Shown here: one piece after another, positions 411 to 34,803 of the stretch | How the letters are laid out: every line of letters starts with the position of its first letter | How positions within the stretch are numbered: position 1 is the stretch's first letter | IMG/VR virus record: IMGVR_UViG_2802429237_000001 | Location: 1-42,554 of that record | Direction: 5' to 3' (one strand) | DNA: 42,554 bases | From: a virus | Taxonomy: Duplodnaviria; Heunggongvirae; Uroviricota; Caudoviricetes | Notes under the pieces: model-generated | Databases searched by the model: none | What the model was told of the DNA's origin: nothing | The model's input: the letters and a program-made list of their open reading frames with translations, nothing else | Translations under genes and position numbers: made by a program

Positions 411-496
411 ACTTTTTAAAGGATGATAAAGACGCTTTTTTCTGACCACTTTTCATGTGGACTGGAAAACCTGGCGTCGTCATCTATTCTTAAAGG

Positions 497-599
497 GCAA
501 GGCAACTAAGCCTGCATTAATGCCAACTTTTAGCGCACGGCTCTCTCCCAAGAGCCATTTCCCTGGACCGAATACAGGAATCGTATTCGGTCTCTTTTT
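497..599 (+). ncRNA. sdsR: SdsR (RyeB) small RNA; its terminator hairpin carries the prophage att core
   Basis: gcaaggcaactaagcctgcattaatgcc...ccgaatacaggaatcgtattcggtctcttttt matches my memory of the ~104-nt SdsR sequence; ends in hairpin ccgaatac/gtattcgg plus U-tract; context between yebY and pphA is the known sdsR/ryeA locus. Recollection-based, not searched. Confidence 0.6.
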
Positions 600-600
600 A
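574..600. repeat. attL core: 27-bp direct repeat acaggaatcgtattcggtctcttttta
   Basis: Exact copy of 41533..41559; lies next to the integrase gene; flanking sequence diverges on both sides. Confidence 0.75.
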
Positions 601-631
601 ATTGTATTTAAAATCAACTAGTTGCAAACGT

Positions 632-2160: not shown

Positions 2161-2349
2161 TCACGAGGACAGAAGTTTCTCGCAATTAAAATTTATCAGT
2201 TTTACTTTCTGCTCTCTGGAAACGCCTGCTTCTTTTTTCCCCGAGAGCATTTTTTCGCATTCCGATTTGGTTAACTTTGTTTTTGAGTACCTTGTCCAGT
2301 TAGTAGGAGTGCCACCTTCCTTTTCAATAGTGGCGGTAATTTTATACAT
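2161..2349 (-). CDS. Hypothetical small protein (Rac ydaC position)
   Basis: 62-aa ORF from ATG at 2349 with strong SD (tggaggtg) upstream; overlaps the last codons of lar. Confidence 0.5.
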   Translation of the reverse strand: MYKITATIEKEGGTPTNWTRYSKTKLTKSECEKMLSGKKEAGVSREQKVKLINFNCEKLLSS

Positions 2350-14876: not shown

Positions 14877-15273
14877 CCTCATATTGCTGAGTAGCTGGTA
14901 CTGCATATTATTATGAAAACACATCGTGGTTTTTATATAAAAGCTGCTTATTATTAAGAGATCTGTTTTATGTTTTTGGCTAGTAAAATGTGATTCTTAA
15001 CTTAAATGTTCCCTTACACTAGATTTATAATATCATCGTGTGATTTATAAACTATGCATTAGTAATAATTAATTTTTCGGAAAAATAGTTAAGTAAAATT
15101 GCTGCGTGTGCTTGAGGCTATCTGCCTCGGGCATGAACACCAACGGCAGATAGAGAAAAGCCCAGTTAACATTACGCGTCCCGCAAGACGTTTAATATTA
15201 ATCTTAGGCCAATTTCATGCTAGACACATGGATGTTAGCCTCTTACGTGCCGAAAGGCAAGGAGAAGCAGGCT

Positions 15274-15429
15274 ATGAAGCAGCAAAAGGCGATGTTAGTC
15301 GCCCTGATCGTCATCTGTTTAACCGTCATTGTGACGGCACTGGTAACGAGGAAAGACCTCTGCGAGGTACGAATCCGAACCGGCCAGACGGAGGTCGCTG
15401 TCTTCACAGCTTACGAACCTGAGGAGTAA
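15274..15429 (+). CDS. hok: Hok/Gef-family type I toxin
   Basis: 51 aa MKQQKAMLVALIVICLTVIVTALVTRKDLCEVRIRTGQTEVAVFTAYEPEE; matches the Hok/HokD (RelF) pattern; in-frame upstream extension from 15217 may correspond to a mok-like leader. Confidence 0.8.
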   Translation: MKQQKAMLVALIVICLTVIVTALVTRKDLCEVRIRTGQTEVAVFTAYEPEE

Positions 15430-16482: not shown

Positions 16483-16772
16483 TGGTGGATTTACGTAAAG
16501 CGGCGCGGGGGCAGATGTGCACCGTCAGAATTCCTGGCTACTGCAATCACAATCCCGAAACTTCTGTGCTGGCGCATTACAGGCTGGCGGGGACGTGCGG
16601 AACAGCGACAAAACCACACGATATGCAGGCAGCGATTGCCTGTAGCTCATGCCACGATTTAATCGACGGGCGGGTAAAAACCAGCGATTACACCAAAGAA
16701 GAATTACGCCTGATGCATGCAGAAGGTGTTTTTCGCACACAAGAAATCTGGAGAAAGGAAGGTTATTTATGA
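16482..16772 (+). CDS. ybcO: YbcO-like putative nuclease (DUF1364-like, Cys-rich)
   Basis: 96 aa with cysteine pattern CTVRIPGYC...CGTATKP...ACSSCHDLIDGR resembling DLP12 YbcO as I recall it; same length. Confidence 0.7.
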   Translation: MVDLRKAARGQMCTVRIPGYCNHNPETSVLAHYRLAGTCGTATKPHDMQAAIACSSCHDLIDGRVKTSDYTKEELRLMHAEGVFRTQEIWRKEGYL

Positions 16773-17311
16773 TTTACCCAACAAATACAGGCAAAAGCGG
16801 GGAACACCTTCGTCTCACCACGCTGGAAAGTGTCTGGATTCAGGGAAAACTGCGCATGTGGGGGCGCTGGTCGTATATTGGCGGCGGTAAGACGGGAAAT
16901 ATGTTTAACCAGTTGCTGACCTCTAAAAAGCTGACAAAAACGGCAATTAACGAGGCGCTCCGGAGGATGAAAAAAGCAGGTCTGGACAAACCTGAACTTG
17001 AGGCTTTTTTGCGGGAGATGATCAACGGCAAGCAAAAAAGCTGGTTGGCGCATTGTACTGATGCAGAGGCGTTATGTATTGATAGAGTCATAAGTGAGGT
17101 GCTAGCAGAGCATCCTGGATTGATTAGTGTCCTCCGGCAACGGTATGAAGGACGGGGGATGACTAAGCGCAAAATGGCTGAATTGCTAAATGATGCACAT
17201 CCTGAGTGGTGTTTTAGCACATGCGAAAAGCGAATTGCTAATTGGTTGGCTGTTGCTGAGTATGCCCTATATATTCCCATGCGAGAATCATTTGCTCAAA
17301 AAATAGCTTGA
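16769..17311 (+). CDS. Putative late-gene antiterminator Q-like protein
   Basis: 180 aa from ATG at 16769 (ATGA overlap with ybcO stop); last gene of the early-right operon before a terminator and the lysis region. Family not confirmed. Confidence 0.45.
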   Translation: MIYPTNTGKSGEHLRLTTLESVWIQGKLRMWGRWSYIGGGKTGNMFNQLLTSKKLTKTAINEALRRMKKAGLDKPELEAFLREMINGKQKSWLAHCTDAEALCIDRVISEVLAEHPGLISVLRQRYEGRGMTKRKMAELLNDAHPEWCFSTCEKRIANWLAVAEYALYIPMRESFAQKIA

Positions 17312-17436: not shown

Positions 17437-17637
17437 ATGAATCAGACTGGTCAACCCAGCTATGCGCTTTTCGCTGGGAATGATAGCAACAACCTCAAAA
17501 CGTTTGTTCTTGAGGTTGATTGCTACCGCACTGAAGACGCGCTACTAGCAATGGAGAAAGCTATAAGCGAATTAAAAATCTGTCAGCGTCAGTTCGGCTA
17601 TGGAAATGATTCTGGTGTCAGAGCCATTATTCGATAA
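17437..17637 (+). CDS. Hypothetical small protein (66 aa)
   Basis: ATG at 17437 preceded by strong SD gaggaggggggg; 3' end overlaps the convergent minus-strand gene by 11 nt. Confidence 0.45.
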   Translation: MNQTGQPSYALFAGNDSNNLKTFVLEVDCYRTEDALLAMEKAISELKICQRQFGYGNDSGVRAIIR

Positions 17638-18175
17638 TTCTTTCTCCAATAATAACTGGCAATGGAATGAGTACCTCCCAGAATGGTTGATACCCTGCGT
17701 AAATCTGAGTTGTTTCTCCCTTCCAGTAAAGATCCAGCCTCTGAGATATTTCTACTGGGGAGCAGTTCAGATTTAACAAATTCATATCGCCTCTATGATA
17801 GTTCGACGATGAGTTGACTTGAAATATTGGGGTATCAAGTGGAAACTTTGAAAAACCTCTGAACCAGGCTGCTTCTTTTACAGACTCACATGCAAAAATT
17901 GATTGGAAACGCGATGGTTTTTCAGGGAAATGTGATTTTCTTCGTTCTTCCAGCAGTATTTCTATTATTGCTCCAAATCGTTCATCTGAGCTGACGAGGT
18001 TTATGTGGTAGTTGAAAAAAAGATTATTTGCATGCCTGGATACGCCGTCGGAAAACAATGAGCTCGTATGAGCCTGAAGTGGAACGATTGGGCAGTGCGG
18101 TTCAGTCAACTCAATTTTCATGCCTGACGTCAGTGTACGCAGCCTGTCAAGTGTGAAAAAAAGATGGTTCGCCAT
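17627..18175 (-). CDS. Hypothetical cargo protein (182 aa), opposite strand between Q-like gene and lysis genes
   Basis: ATG at 18175 with SD aggaaag; lower GC than flanks; no domain recognised. Confidence 0.6.
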   Translation of the reverse strand: MANHLFFTLDRLRTLTSGMKIELTEPHCPIVPLQAHTSSLFSDGVSRHANNLFFNYHINLVSSDERFGAIIEILLEERRKSHFPEKPSRFQSIFACESVKEAAWFRGFSKFPLDTPIFQVNSSSNYHRGDMNLLNLNCSPVEISQRLDLYWKGETTQIYAGYQPFWEVLIPLPVIIGERIIE

Positions 18176-18237: not shown

Positions 18238-18342
18238 TGTAGTGAATACAATGCTGTAAAAGCGGTAGAGCAGCCTCCGCATCTGGTAGCCTGACTGGAT
18301 GAAATAGTGCAGTGATATTCCTAATAGCCACGATTAATAGAC

Positions 18343-18371
18343 CTCGGCATTTGCCGGGGTTTTTTATTTAA
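18343..18371 (+). terminator. tR'-like intrinsic terminator upstream of the lysis cassette
   Basis: cucggca-uu-ugccggg (one G-U pair) followed by guuuuuuauuu. Confidence 0.5.
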
Positions 18372-19681: not shown

Positions 19682-19844
19682 AACACCCCAGCCAGATTTA
19701 CCCGACCCGTTTACGTGGGGAGCCAGCATTAACCTGAATGTTGCGTTGTTGTCAGCGTTAGCACAGTGCAACAGGGATAAGGCTGATATCAGGACTTTTG
19801 AGAAAAATAGGGCAGCACAAACCAATGGCACGATTAAACGTTGA
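19566..19844 (+). CDS. Rz1: Rz1-like o-spanin lipoprotein, overlapping Rz in +1 frame
   Basis: Signal peptide MMIVLFVSFLLAQLSGC with lipobox LSGC; proline-rich mature part; starts inside Rz and extends 163 nt beyond it. Confidence 0.6.
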   Translation: MMIVLFVSFLLAQLSGCTNTRTVYVSVPVVPLPASLTDETPQPDLPDPFTWGASINLNVALLSALAQCNRDKADIRTFEKNRAAQTNGTIKR

Positions 19845-20010
19845 AGTTATCCCACCAGACAGCGAAACGATGAACGGGATTTTTGCAGAGATTGAACGTA
19901 AATATGCGCATCAGCCGATGACGCCAAAAGTTATCGATGAAATGCAACGCGAAGCGGCGCGCCTTGTACGGCGAGCGACAAACACGAAGGTTACGTTCGT
20001 TCGGGACTGA
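19825..20010 (+). CDS. Hypothetical small protein (61 aa)
   Basis: ATG at 19825 (track start 19798 is TTG); overlaps the Rz1 3' end; weak SD; followed by a perfect 10-bp hairpin. Confidence 0.3.
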   Translation: MARLNVEVIPPDSETMNGIFAEIERKYAHQPMTPKVIDEMQREAARLVRRATNTKVTFVRD

Positions 20011-20147
20011 CATTACAGAAGCTCCTTTGATAAGGAGCTTCGATAATGTCACTAAGAGGAAAAATTCATGGCAAAACCGGACTGGGAGGCCATCGAATCG
20101 GTGCCCCGGGCCAGATTGCTCTCTCCGTTAAATCAGAACTCAAAATC

Positions 20148-20609
20148 CTATCCGTGGAAAATATTTGCATCCAAATCATCTATGAGATTAGACCTAACTG
20201 ATTCATAATTTTTCCCATATGCGGCCCCTTTACCTGAATGGGTTACATGCCCAATAGGACCGTACAGAAGTATAGAGATTGTGAATGATATTTCATCAGA
20301 AATGCCGCCTATCTTTTGAAACCAAAGTTCCGGGTTACGATTCCGGTCGGTTACAACGTCAAATACAAGCGCGATAAGATCTGGGAGATAGTACATGTTA
20401 AATCCGCCATTTGGGGTCAACTCGAGATTCAACAGGTCTTTGATGGAGGGATAATTGCTTACATCATCCTGAATGCCATTCTTAAGAGCTGTAAACACAA
20501 AGTTCAGCATTTCAGCAACTTTATCTTTGTTTGGTTCTACTCCATTTCTGAAGGACCGCTCTCCAGATTCATATTTTTCAACACAAAAATCTAATAAATT
20601 CATTATCAT
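20148..20609 (-). CDS. Hypothetical cargo protein (about 151 aa) at the lambda bor position
   Basis: Opposite-strand AT-rich ORF between lysis cassette and terminase; probable start ATG at 20603; its RBS overlaps the terS RBS on the other strand; no domain recognised. Confidence 0.6.
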   Translation of the reverse strand: MIMNLLDFCVEKYESGERSFRNGVEPNKDKVAEMLNFVFTALKNGIQDDVSNYPSIKDLLNLELTPNGGFNMYYLPDLIALVFDVVTDRNRNPELWFQKIGGISDEISFTISILLYGPIGHVTHSGKGAAYGKNYESVRSNLIDDLDANIFHG

Positions 20610-20625
20610 TCCCCGAGGTAACTAA

Positions 20626-21177
20626 ATGGCGCTCACCGACAAACAAGAGATGTTCTGTCGCGAGTACCTCATCGATTTAAACGCCACGCAAGCGGCTATT
20701 CGGGCGGGGTACAGCGCTAAGACAGCTAACCGTACCGCATCCGAAAACCTGTCAAAACCTGACATCAAGTTAAGAATCGCCGAACTGAAAGCGCAACGCA
20801 ATGATCTTGTTGGTATTAATGCAGAATATGTACTTAATCGCCTTATTGAAATCGACCAGATGGATGTGCTTGACATTCTCCTGCAAAACGGTGAGCTAAA
20901 ACCCATTAAAGACTGGCCTAAGGTATGGCGCACAACGCTATCAGGAATGGATGTCGTGGAGATGGTATCCGCAGATAGCGCCGCACTTCTGAAGAAAATC
21001 AAATGGCCTGATAAGGTTAAAAACCTTGAGTTGCTTGGGCGCCATGTTTCTGTTCAGGCGTTTAAAGACAACGTCAAAAATGAAGTGACTGGCGCTGATG
21101 GAGGTCCAGTCAGAACAGAAATTACCAACTTAACGCCGGAGCAGGTTGCAGAGGCGTATAGAAAAATGATGGGCTAA
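20626..21177 (+). CDS. Terminase small subunit
   Basis: 183 aa; N-terminus [30 protein letters not shown] typical of small terminase subunits; directly precedes the large subunit. Confidence 0.8.
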
Positions 21178-21179
21178 GT

Positions 21180-22802
21180 ATGCCGTTACCATTCCCCTTC
21201 GATTTTAAGCATCCTGATTACCAGATGGTTTTTGAATGGCGGATGGAACGCTTACAGCGCATTCGCCAGAACCCTGAAATATTGCCTGCACTAAAACAGT
21301 TTTACCGAACCAATCCGGCTCAGTTCATCATCGACTGGGGCATGACAACGGACCCGCGTAATATTGATTATGGCCTGCCGGTGACCATTCCGTTTTTACT
21401 CTTCCCTAAGCAGGAGGAGTGGATCCACTGGATTATGGAACGCTGGGGCAATCGGGAGAATGGTATTACCGAAAAATCCCGTGAAATGGGGCTCAGTTGG
21501 ACCGCGATCGGACTGGCATGCTCGCTTTGTCTCTTCAACAAAGAAATGGTTATCGGTTTCGGCTCCCGTAAAGAGGAATACGTCGACAGCACTGGTGACC
21601 CGAAAGCATTGTTCTGGAAGGCACGCAAGTTCGTGGAAACGCTACCTGTAGAGTTTCGCGGTTCGTGGAGTGAGAAGAAGCACGCGCCATATATGCGTGT
21701 TGAGTTTCCTGAAACTGGTGCCGTTATCAAAGGCGAGGCTGGCGATAATATTGGTCGTGGTGACCGTACCACGCTTTATCTGGTTGATGAGGCTGCATTC
21801 CTTCAGCGTCCTCTGCTGATTGATGCGGCGTTGTCACAAACGACGCGTTGCCGTATCGACCTGAGTTCAGTTAACGGCATGGCTAACCCGTTCGCTCAGA
21901 AGCGTCATGGCGGGAAGATACCGGTATTCACATTCCACTGGCGGGATGATCCTCGCAAGGATGAAGAGTGGTATCGCAGGGAATGCGAGAAAATCGATAA
22001 TCCGGTGGTGGTGGCACAGGAACTTGATCTGAACTACAGCGCATCAGCGGAAGGCGTTCTGATTCCATCCGAATGGGTACAGGCTGCCGTTGATGCGCAT
22101 ATCAAACTGGGTATCCAGCCAACAGGCAAACGACTTGGCGCGATGGATGTCGCCGACGAAGGCAGGGACAAAAATGCCTTTTCCACCCGTCATGGCTTCC
22201 TCCTGGAAAATGTGCGGGAATGGTCCGGTGTGGGCAGCGACATTTATCAGTCCGTCGAGAAGGTTTTCGGCTTTTGCGAACAGGACAACCTCGAAGAGTT
22301 TCGCTTTGACGAGGACGGGCTGGGCGCTGGCGTTCGCGGCGATGCACGCGCTATCAACGAACTGCGTAACGCTGCGCGTCGACCGTCAATACTTGCCACA
22401 CCGTTTCGAGGTAGTGGCGCGGTATTTGATCCGGATGATGAAGCTGTTCGCGGGGACAACGGGCAAGCCGCACGTCTGAACAAGGACTTCTTCGCTAACG
22501 CCAAAGCCCAGAGCTGGTGGCGGTTACGTAAACTTTTTCAGAATACCTGGCGCGCCGTGGTTGAAGGTATGGCTTACAACTCGGACGAAATCATCTCAAT
22601 CAGCAGTAGCATGGCACTCAAAGATAAACTCATCATCGAGCTTTCGCAGCCGACCTATTCCATTAATGGTGTGGGAAAAATCGTTATTGATAAACAGCCT
22701 GATGGAACCCGATCGCCAAACCTTGCCGACTCGGTGATGATCAACTATGCCCCAATGAATTCAGCCCTGAACATCTGGGAGCTGCTAGGGAGACAGGCCT
22801 GA
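21180..22802 (+). CDS. Terminase large subunit
   Basis: 540 aa; position between terS and portal; nuclease-like acidic segments ([11 protein letters not shown]). Confidence 0.85.
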
Positions 22803-33914: not shown

Positions 33915-34501
33915 TGGATATTCTCTCTACACTTTTTCATCAGCAGAGCAGAAAAATAGGAATGATTGTTCCCAGTGTTGTTATTTCAGAGAAGCATACA
34001 GATATGCTTGAAATAACAGAGCATCCGGTAGAGGTCGGGGCCGCTGTCGCTGATCATGCCTATAAAAAACCGTCAGAAGTGGTGATGGAGGTTGGTTTCG
34101 CCGGTGGCGGCGCATTGCTGGATTTTGCCAGTAACCTGACGGCTACCAGCCTGCTCGGCCTGAGTCCTCAGCAGACGTATCAGGAGCTACTGGATCTGCA
34201 GGAAAGCCGTATCCCCTTCGATGTGGTAACCGGTAAACGACTGTACAGCAACATGTTGATCCGGGCGCTGGAAGTGACGACGGACAAGACAACCGAAAAC
34301 GTCCTGTCCGCCGTCATCACCCTGAGGGAGGTCCTTATCTCCCGGACACAGCAGATTACCGCCGCGGATAAAACCAACATGAAGGAAGGGGCCAGCACGT
34401 CGGCGGTACAGAATAGCGGCAACAAAACCACAAAGCCTCCAGATACTTCACTGCTGAAAAGCATCACGGGTAACGTGGTGTCATTACTGGGGGGCGGTTA
34501 A
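33914..34501 (+). CDS. Putative tail protein (Mu gp43-like position)
   Basis: 195 aa; GTG start overlapping the tape measure stop (TAGTG); alternative ATG about 48 nt downstream. Confidence 0.5.
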   Translation: MDILSTLFHQQSRKIGMIVPSVVISEKHTDMLEITEHPVEVGAAVADHAYKKPSEVVMEVGFAGGGALLDFASNLTATSLLGLSPQQTYQELLDLQESRIPFDVVTGKRLYSNMLIRALEVTTDKTTENVLSAVITLREVLISRTQQITAADKTNMKEGASTSAVQNSGNKTTKPPDTSLLKSITGNVVSLLGGG

Positions 34502-34803
34502 TGACAATTCAGGAAATTCCGCTGACAGCGGACAACCAGCAGTTCAGCATCGTCCTGGGTGGTGTCACCTGGCGGATTAGCATCATATGGCGAGATCCTT
34601 ACTGGATTATGGACCTGCAGAACGACAGAGGAGAGCCGGTAATCTCCGGTATTCCTCTCGTCACTGGCGCTGATCTGCTGGCGCAGTACGCCTGTATGGG
34701 GCTTGGTTTTAAGCTGTTGGTGGTCTGCGATGACAACACACAGGATTATCCCACGAAAACTGACCTGGGCGGTCGCAGTCATTTACTGGTATCAACGGAG
34801 TAA
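34501..34803 (+). CDS. Putative small tail/baseplate protein
   Basis: 100 aa; start overlaps upstream stop (TAATG). Confidence 0.5.
   Translation: MTIQEIPLTADNQQFSIVLGGVTWRISIIWRDPYWIMDLQNDRGEPVISGIPLVTGADLLAQYACMGLGFKLLVVCDDNTQDYPTKTDLGGRSHLLVSTE

Follow-up and report, generated by a model that had tools for sequence, protein, structure and literature searches.

The hairpin at 20008..20051 (plus strand) of the window, by which we mean the whole stretch of 42,554 nt analyzed here, is very probably a conserved plus-strand RNA element of the leader of terS, the gene for the small terminase subunit. The 46-aa ORF that begins shortly after it (20068..20208, plus strand) is almost certainly the 5' stub of a displaced terS read on to the next stop, that is, a pseudogene fragment. 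Taking hairpin and stub together, and including a step of RNase III cleavage, we favor on balance an explanation in which the hairpin is a late-operon RNA element of the T7 R1.1 processing-signal type whose terS module has been replaced.

Prophage context

The window represents a lambdoid prophage of E. coli; the SdsR/RyeA, RalA and sok RNAs lie towards its left. Rfam matches place SraC/RyeA and SdsR/RyeB, a host sRNA locus at the left edge of the prophage, at 459..603; RalA, the antitoxin RNA of RalR, at 2165..2343; and sok, of the hok/sok toxin-antitoxin type, at 15106..15279. Further right, the gene order is DUF1367, YbcO, a Q-like antiterminator (16769..17311), a minus-strand DUF2441 cargo gene and a tR'-like terminator (18339-18362), and it continues with holin, lysozyme, Rz/Rz1, a 61-aa ORF, the hairpin, the 46-aa ORF, a minus-strand 153-aa ORF, terS, terL and portal. 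Based on this gene order, the hairpin lies inside the rightward Q-dependent late transcription unit. The 61-aa ORF (19825..20010, plus strand; WP_000113283.1) is the last small ORF on the lysis side and belongs to phrog_12811, a family annotated as of unknown function (E 1e-39). On the other side of the hairpin, the convergent 153-aa cargo ORF (20148..20609, minus strand) occupies a variable slot that holds different cargo in relatives. The replacement packaging module (20626..22802, plus strand) follows, with a Terminase_2-type terS at 20626..21177 (PF03592, E 7e-40) and terL at 21180..22802 (phrog_2).

A large irregular stem-loop past the last lysis-side gene

The first-pass annotation had described a perfect 10-bp hairpin at 20018..20041, 8 nt past the stop of a small ORF and not followed by Ts, and inspection of the sequence agrees with this in every point. 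The inner stem-loop reads gaagctcctt-tgat-aaggagcttc; its stem (20018-20027 with 20032-20041, closed by the loop UGAU at 20028-20031) begins at the eighth base past the TGA (20008..20010) that ends the upstream ORF. The hairpin is bigger than that description, an irregular stem-loop of 20 positions. An outer 8-bp stem pairs 20008-20015 (TGACATTA) with 20044-20051 (TAATGTCA), and a 2x2 internal loop, with CA at 20016-17 opposite GA at 20042-43, separates it from the inner stem; the TGA of the 61-aa ORF supplies the first three bases of the outer stem. The arms are thus 20 nt long and 90% complementary (18 bp plus the 2x2 loop, or 20 stacked positions), and in an inverted-repeat search this was the longest hairpin-type inverted repeat of the 42.5-kb window. 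The RNA is predicted to fold with -30.9 kcal/mol, compared with an average of -14.5 for shuffled sequences (z = -5.4; none of 200 shuffles as good), and the predicted fold leaves the downstream Shine-Dalgarno (SD) sequence unsequestered by the hairpin. The copy in the window is without wobble pairs and pairs perfectly, and because of this it folds on the minus strand as well as on the plus strand.

At gathering score, an Rfam search of the whole window returned no family at the hairpin locus, and a search of 19900-20250 at E <= 10 returned generic miRNA-precursor hairpin models only. With filters off, further copies of the hairpin were found neither in the window nor in phage GZ7, giving one copy per genome. 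The same unfiltered search gave a weak match to the hairpin model R1 (described below) at 34474..34510 on the minus strand (15.5 bits, E 0.04), which is probably due to chance.

A hairpin family upstream of terS

Using a degenerate 29-mer of the terS start as anchor, with the hairpin itself left out of the search pattern, we scanned the viral contigs of IMG/VR and obtained the loci L008-L127. About 55 of the terS-anchored loci carry a two-tier hairpin upstream, in each case as the predicted minimum-free-energy fold. The family motif is (G)CAUUA-CA-(9-10 bp variable stem, 3-4 nt loop)-GA-UAAUG. Its flanks CAUUA and GAUAAUG (ATT...GATAATG in DNA) are invariant in all 38 distinct sequences, and 18 different sequences of the inner stem occur across the family. 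In L053, a natural variant, the change ACAG->AUCG closes the internal loop. The genes 5' of the family hairpins vary (Rha, unknown ORFs, a lysis protein), with 0-12 nt between their ends and the hairpin, and terS starts 15-25 nt 3' of the latter; in a few copies (L009, L096, L041/L068, L018/L095) another gene lies between hairpin and terS. Q-dependent late operons are the setting of these elements, and the terS family found there is phrog_370.

The base pairs of the inner stem have been maintained as RNA pairs. We counted them outward from the conserved anchors, a procedure that needs no alignment and is independent of model R1, and obtained 144 Watson-Crick cells, 29 G-U cells, no A-C cell and 1 other mismatch. 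The U lies on the 5' arm in 26 of the 29 wobbles. On the minus strand every G-U would turn into an A-C mismatch, and the helix there would be 17% mismatched. The presence of 29 G-U and no A-C cells therefore argues for selection on the plus-strand transcript and not on duplex DNA or an antisense RNA. A covariance model (R1) built from five family members finds 70 copies at E < 1e-5, corresponding to about 70 phage or prophage loci. In the R1 alignment, which is model-fitted and hence leans towards structure, 97% of cells are paired, double changes are found at 11 of 17 pairs, and the covariation score is 0.50, compared with 0.23 in shuffles (0 of 500 reach the observed score) and 0.04-0.09 for slid partners. 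The family is a covariation-supported RNA motif absent from Rfam, and its kind is already known from the intercistronic processing and stabilizer hairpins of phages. For lambdoid phages, a literature search returned no paper on a hairpin conserved before terS or on an RNase III site there.

These counts also bear on a reading of the hairpin as a palindrome at the level of DNA, either a pac or cos site used by the neighboring terminase or an operator to which a dimeric protein binds. The element lies immediately upstream of terS, a frequent place for pac and cos; its outer arms CATTA/TAATG are an invariant inverted repeat; one phage record, that of a Wanchaivirus, begins inside the hairpin; and the cos end of HK639 lies about as far before terS, within another inverted repeat. 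We nevertheless consider a DNA site very improbable, given that the inner stem preserves pairing and not sequence, that an imbalance between G-U and A-C would be meaningless for the recognition of duplex DNA, and that the hairpin is retained beside unrelated terminases and even upstream of other genes. The start of the Wanchaivirus record was considered as a DNA end and rejected, the record being a plain circular permutation without terminal overlap. In HK639 (L002, 1-50; L058) the left end of the genome lies at the center of the inverted repeat TACCAC-CACGCT-GTGGTA, which is intact in the prophage copy, about 55 nt before terS, and distinct from the hairpin studied here; this repeat is presumably the cos nicking site.

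A transcription terminator, possibly a bidirectional one that parts the late lysis genes from the cargo and insulates the structural genes in the lysogen, is also improbable, if somewhat less so. It would suit a hairpin that sits between convergent ORFs and, in the window, pairs perfectly on both strands. As in the intrinsic terminators of lambdoid late operons, a GC-rich stem-loop follows a stop codon, and some relatives hold a real terminator: in L038, L069, L072 and L125, this slot, with an identical outer stem (GCCAUU...AAUGGC), is taken by a canonical stem with U6-7, that is, a stem-plus-U7 type of terminator. This suggests that one element switches between a terminator form and a form with GAUAAUG, and the ancestral role of the element in this slot may have been termination. 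Unlike such terminators, the hairpin in the window has no T-run 3' of the stem on the plus strand (ctaagaggaaaaattc; tail CUAAGAGGAAAAAUUC) or on the minus strand (gtcccgaacgaac; tail GUCCCGAACGAAC), a U-tract is likewise absent from the approximately 55 family members, which conserve GAUAAUG instead, and a scan of the window for consensus promoters and terminators did not report the hairpin as a terminator. Moreover, in the intact relatives the hairpin is found within the operon directly before terS, where termination would block the packaging genes; a Q-modified polymerase would read through a terminator before terS. The G-U pairs of the family, which are A-C on the minus strand, further indicate that a minus-strand hairpin is unselected. 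The opinion of the first-pass annotation that a stability or processing element is likelier than a terminator is therefore supported computationally by the missing U-tract on either strand, the compensatory changes, the G-U pairs that are possible on the plus strand only, and the RNase III-like architecture taken up below.

We also considered the invariant GATAAT as a promoter -10 element and, on reading the sequence, rejected it, there being no acceptable -35 or TG extension. The nearest promoter-like match (20182-20209, plus strand) is a weak one (9/12) inside the 46-aa ORF, and such matches are rarer in the window than in shuffles.

A stub of terS downstream of the hairpin

The ORF at 20068..20208 starts with ATG, encodes 46 aa and is preceded by AAGAGGA at 20054..20060, 7 nt before the start codon. 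It overlaps the minus-strand ORF at 20148..20609 by 61 nt, so that one third of it is antisense. The first-pass annotation had taken these features for a hidden ORF with a strong SD; the frame, the SD and the overlap (of 61 nt) are real, but they do not amount to a gene. By BLAST, the segment 20009..20133 matches the terS leader and the first terS codons in phage records, namely those of the Klebsiella phages Chronis, GZ7 and ST16-OXA48phi5.2, among others, and of a Wanchaivirus; the start of the ORF alone also matches terS of coliphage HK639 and Salmonella phage SEN34. The SD, the ATG and ATGGCAAAACCGGACTGGGAGGCCATCGA are invariant in the alignment with these phage terS starts.

The closest relatives show what has been lost. 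Six loci (L056, L076, L079, L087, L099 and L126) carry the hairpin context of the window, with one A->G difference, and then an intact 249-aa gene, which in L056 (353-1102) scores E 4e-94 against phrog_370, the family 'terminase small subunit'. Window and L056 share every base from a point upstream of the 61-aa ORF up to and including 20101, and the similarity decays afterwards; the SD, the ATG and the first 34 nt of the 46-aa ORF are identical to the intact 249-aa terS. Compared with the Klebsiella terS genes, a weak similarity interrupted by a 2-nt frameshifting deletion persists to ~20130. The 5' remnant of the phrog_370 terS thus covers 20068..20130 (plus strand), identical through 20101 and degenerate with the 2-nt deletion from there on. 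The SD at 20054..20060 is inherited from the displaced gene and is the same in L056 and other loci with intact terS. The rest of the 46-aa ORF is the stub read on into unrelated DNA, antisense to the 3' end of the cargo gene.

Stubs of this kind recur with other endings. Other loci have stubs of 10, 12, 13, 14, 24, 33, 35, 37, 41, 43 and 46 codons, the 41-codon stub being the REL606/BL21 type, and their tails are mutually unrelated. After the stubs come ORFs that vary and often lie on the opposite strand, and then another terS, usually of the Terminase_2 type and once Nu1-like. Since the first 29 nt of terS were part of the scan pattern, these loci cannot show a selective retention of the stub. 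The region is present in 210 complete E. coli genomes, 112 of which have an intact terS together with a terL of the PBSX family; the stub only (the first 163 nt of the query) is found in ~95 of the 210, a figure estimated from sampled rows, and among these are BL21/REL606, E. coli C and EPEC E2348/69.

With these relatives in hand, a genuine small-protein gene overlooked by annotation becomes extremely improbable. An ATG with a strong SD at ideal spacing is what such a gene would have, and the ORF is retained in the loci L003 and L066. However, outside near-identical DNA (~99.9%; L003, L066 and 6 genomes) the 46-aa frame is not kept, and at that level of identity L003 and L066 are uninformative on selection. 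Residues 1-11 (MAKPDWEAIES) are the only part of the ORF that matches terS, and the 11-12 residues that it shares with anything are the terS N-terminus. Beyond them, the tails of the 41-aa, 43-aa and other stubs are wholly different, the 2-nt deletion puts the frame out of step with that of terS, a third of the ORF runs antisense to another one, and the 46-aa product matches no PHROG family. The ORF does not encode a full-length small terminase either, for which one would expect a length of about 200-260 aa, an HTH at the N-terminus and an oligomerization core. The first-pass annotation had looked to conservation of the 46-aa frame in related prophages to decide for the ORF, and to a non-conserved frame with no translation signal to decide against it. 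In the relatives we find either the 249-aa terS or stubs, 10-46 codons long, whose tails are unrelated, and the frame is thus not conserved, whereas the translation signal, a strong SD and an ATG, is genuine. Because these are the inherited initiation signals of terS, the stub may still be translated into a junk peptide. For annotation, the consequence is that the 46-aa ORF should not be called as a gene, a point of some reach given that the terS pseudogene stub recurs in ~95 complete E. coli genomes.

The start of terS has a property of its own. Its first ~30 nt (MAKPDWEAIE; 20068..20101 in the window, and L008-L127) are nearly invariant as DNA, a block that the scan pattern itself demanded. 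The near-invariant block spans terS genes of 171-267 aa that differ in sequence and in the terminases downstream, and the truncations of terS cluster just past it. This block looks like a shared recombination joint for the exchange of modules.

Comparison with T7 RNase III signals

The family resembles the RNase III signals of phage T7 (R0.3, R0.5, R1, R1.1, R1.3, R4.7, R6.5 and R18.5) in several respects. Both are intergenic hairpins in a polycistronic phage mRNA, and both are built of a lower stem, an internal loop, an upper stem of 9-10 bp and a loop of 3-4 nt. In both, the upper stem is rich in U-G wobbles with the G on the 3' arm. Most family stems have U-G and U-A at pairs 8 and 9, as R1.1 does, and local sequence runs are shared with R1 and R1.1. 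For the T7 sites we used the coordinates of Dunn & Studier 1983. Hairpins are present at these coordinates, and the R1.1 hairpin found there agrees with the published details: its tetraloop is GCAA, there are adjacent U:G and C:G pairs, and the distal box contains UA and UG (PMC1540722).

E. coli RNase III substrates need about two helical turns and a minimum of 11 bp from the cleavage site to the loop (Pertzev & Nicholson 2006, PMC1540722). The window hairpin has the length of an R1.1-type substrate: 8 bp, the 2x2 loop and 10 bp follow one another, and the internal loop starts at position 11 off the hairpin loop. Internal loops limit RNase III to cutting one strand, and the 3' hairpin that results shields the upstream RNA from exonucleases (PMC1540722). 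A-U pairs are preferred in the proximal box, and UA/UG in the distal box is a positive determinant (PMC1540722). In the family, the lower stem beside the internal loop consists of four pairs that are all A/U, and counting from the internal loop, pair 8 is U-G in 14 of 18 stems and pair 9 is U-A in 13 of 18, the same pairs as in T7 R1.1; these positions hold for 9-bp and 10-bp stems alike. In the window copy, pair 8 is C-G and pair 9 is U-A, which leaves half of its distal box canonical, and a distal-box substitution of the C-G class is one that lowers the reactivity of uR1.1 more than 5-fold (PMC1540722).

We further compared the two groups by covariance models. A model built from seven T7 sites (R2), with R6.5 held out, was used to search 311 kb; it recovers the held-out R6.5 at 38 bits. 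Of the family it also matches L105 (27.5 bits, E 3e-4), L074 (E 7e-4) and L091 (E 0.04); weaker matches are L027, L085 and L015. For the window copy R2 gives no match (E > 10), and most copies of the Klebsiella type are likewise missed; in the opposite direction, R1 finds no RNase III site in the T7 genome. A direct alignment of T7 R1 with L027 gives 33 identities in 40 aligned positions, the run UCAUCUGCGGGUGG among them.

Based on this architecture, the hairpin may well be an RNase III processing signal; for this assignment, and for the cleavage and consequences predicted from it, we regard the balance as about even. Several features separate the family from the T7 signals. Its internal loop is a symmetric 2x2 one (CA/GA), whereas the T7 loops are asymmetric. 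Its flanks CAUUA...GAUAAUG are invariant, which is more sequence constraint than RNase III is known to need, and each genome has a single copy, in contrast to T7 with its multi-site pattern. Its hosts are temperate lambdoid phages transcribed by a Q-modified host polymerase, its cleavage is predicted, and the window's own copy goes unrecognized by the T7 model. The invariant flanks around a free inner stem, in 38 distinct sequences, are typical of sequence-specific recognition, and the single copy always adjoins the ribosome-binding site of one gene. These features, and the lack of a canonical distal box in the window copy, would fit a conserved RNA element with another reader: a phage or host RNA-binding protein that controls terS translation, or a passive, uncut structure that acts as a barrier to 3' exonucleases or as a 5' stabilizer. 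We consider such a reader possible but unlikely. No candidate binding protein is evident, the SD is not sequestered in the predicted fold, and the architecture, the U-G and U-A positions and the matches to the T7 model favor RNase III.

In lambdoid late operons the element normally lies in the short interval that separates a phrog_370-type terS from the last gene on the lysis side. In the RNase III reading, the enzyme would bind the irregular helix of ~20 positions and cut in or beside the conserved internal loop, with a cut predicted at ~GAU|AAUG, ~13 nt past the loop on its 3' side. A stable 3' hairpin that blocks exonucleases would then remain on the upstream lysis mRNA, and the packaging mRNA would gain a new 5' end ~22 nt before the start codon. 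In the lineage of the window, the original terS/terL has been exchanged for a cargo gene and a Terminase_2-type terS/terL, with the joint just inside the old terS. The scar left by this event comprises the hairpin, the SD, the ATG and ~11-20 degraded codons, and the 46-aa ORF is this scar read to the next stop. The late transcript still crosses the hairpin, runs antisense through the 153-aa cargo ORF and goes on into the replacement terS. For the upstream lysis mRNA the window hairpin could still function as a 3' stabilizer, or it may simply be a young relic, since its downstream partner gene is dead and it is 98-100% identical to the hairpins of intact relatives. On the minus strand, its fold could incidentally cap the 3' end of the cargo mRNA, a role for which the family gives no sign of selection.

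If the hairpin is an RNase III site, the T7 paradigm of intercistronic processing extends to the late operons of temperate lambdoid phages, and the element offers a simple handle on the differential decay of lysis and morphogenesis mRNA. More tentatively, we suggest as a possibility somewhat beyond this evidence that the hairpin is an undescribed, widespread processing element at the boundary between lysis and packaging genes in temperate phages of enterobacteria. Cut by RNase III or a dedicated reader, it might uncouple the stability and translation of lysis mRNA from those of packaging mRNA, and together with the first 30 nt of terS it might form the recombination joint at which packaging modules and cargo are swapped.

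The cargo slot between terS stub and replacement module

The site shares its general form with the remnants left at lambdoid mosaic junctions, where the 5' end of a gene is truncated at a module boundary and variable, often opposite-strand cargo lies between the lysis and packaging genes. A familiar example of such a moron slot is that of lambda, where bor is located between Rz and nu1. Unlike those remnants, the scar in the window retains a full, strong translation-initiation region and an upstream RNA element, and truncation at this boundary has occurred repeatedly, at codons that range from 10 to 46. Stub and hairpin thus mark a hot junction for the exchange of packaging modules and orphan cargo genes.

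The 153-aa cargo protein of the window has no match in Pfam, PHROGs, NCBIfam, PADLOC or the PDB sequences, and its sole match, by tblastn against phages, is to Pseudomonas phage PseuP_222 at 25% identity. Varied orphan ORFs occupy the slot between the terS stub and the Terminase_2 terS (20148..20626 in the window; L001:4354-4922, L027, L052 and L117); they lie mostly on the minus strand and encode 153, 182, 156, 203 and 144 aa. In the window, the start of the cargo ORF (20609) and that of the Terminase_2 terS (20626) are separated by 16 nt only, and because of this short gap the promoter of the 153-aa cargo gene must be inside the terS coding DNA. A second cargo ORF on the opposite strand (17627..18175, minus strand; 182 aa, DUF2441) lies between the Q-like antiterminator gene and the tR'-like terminator and holin.
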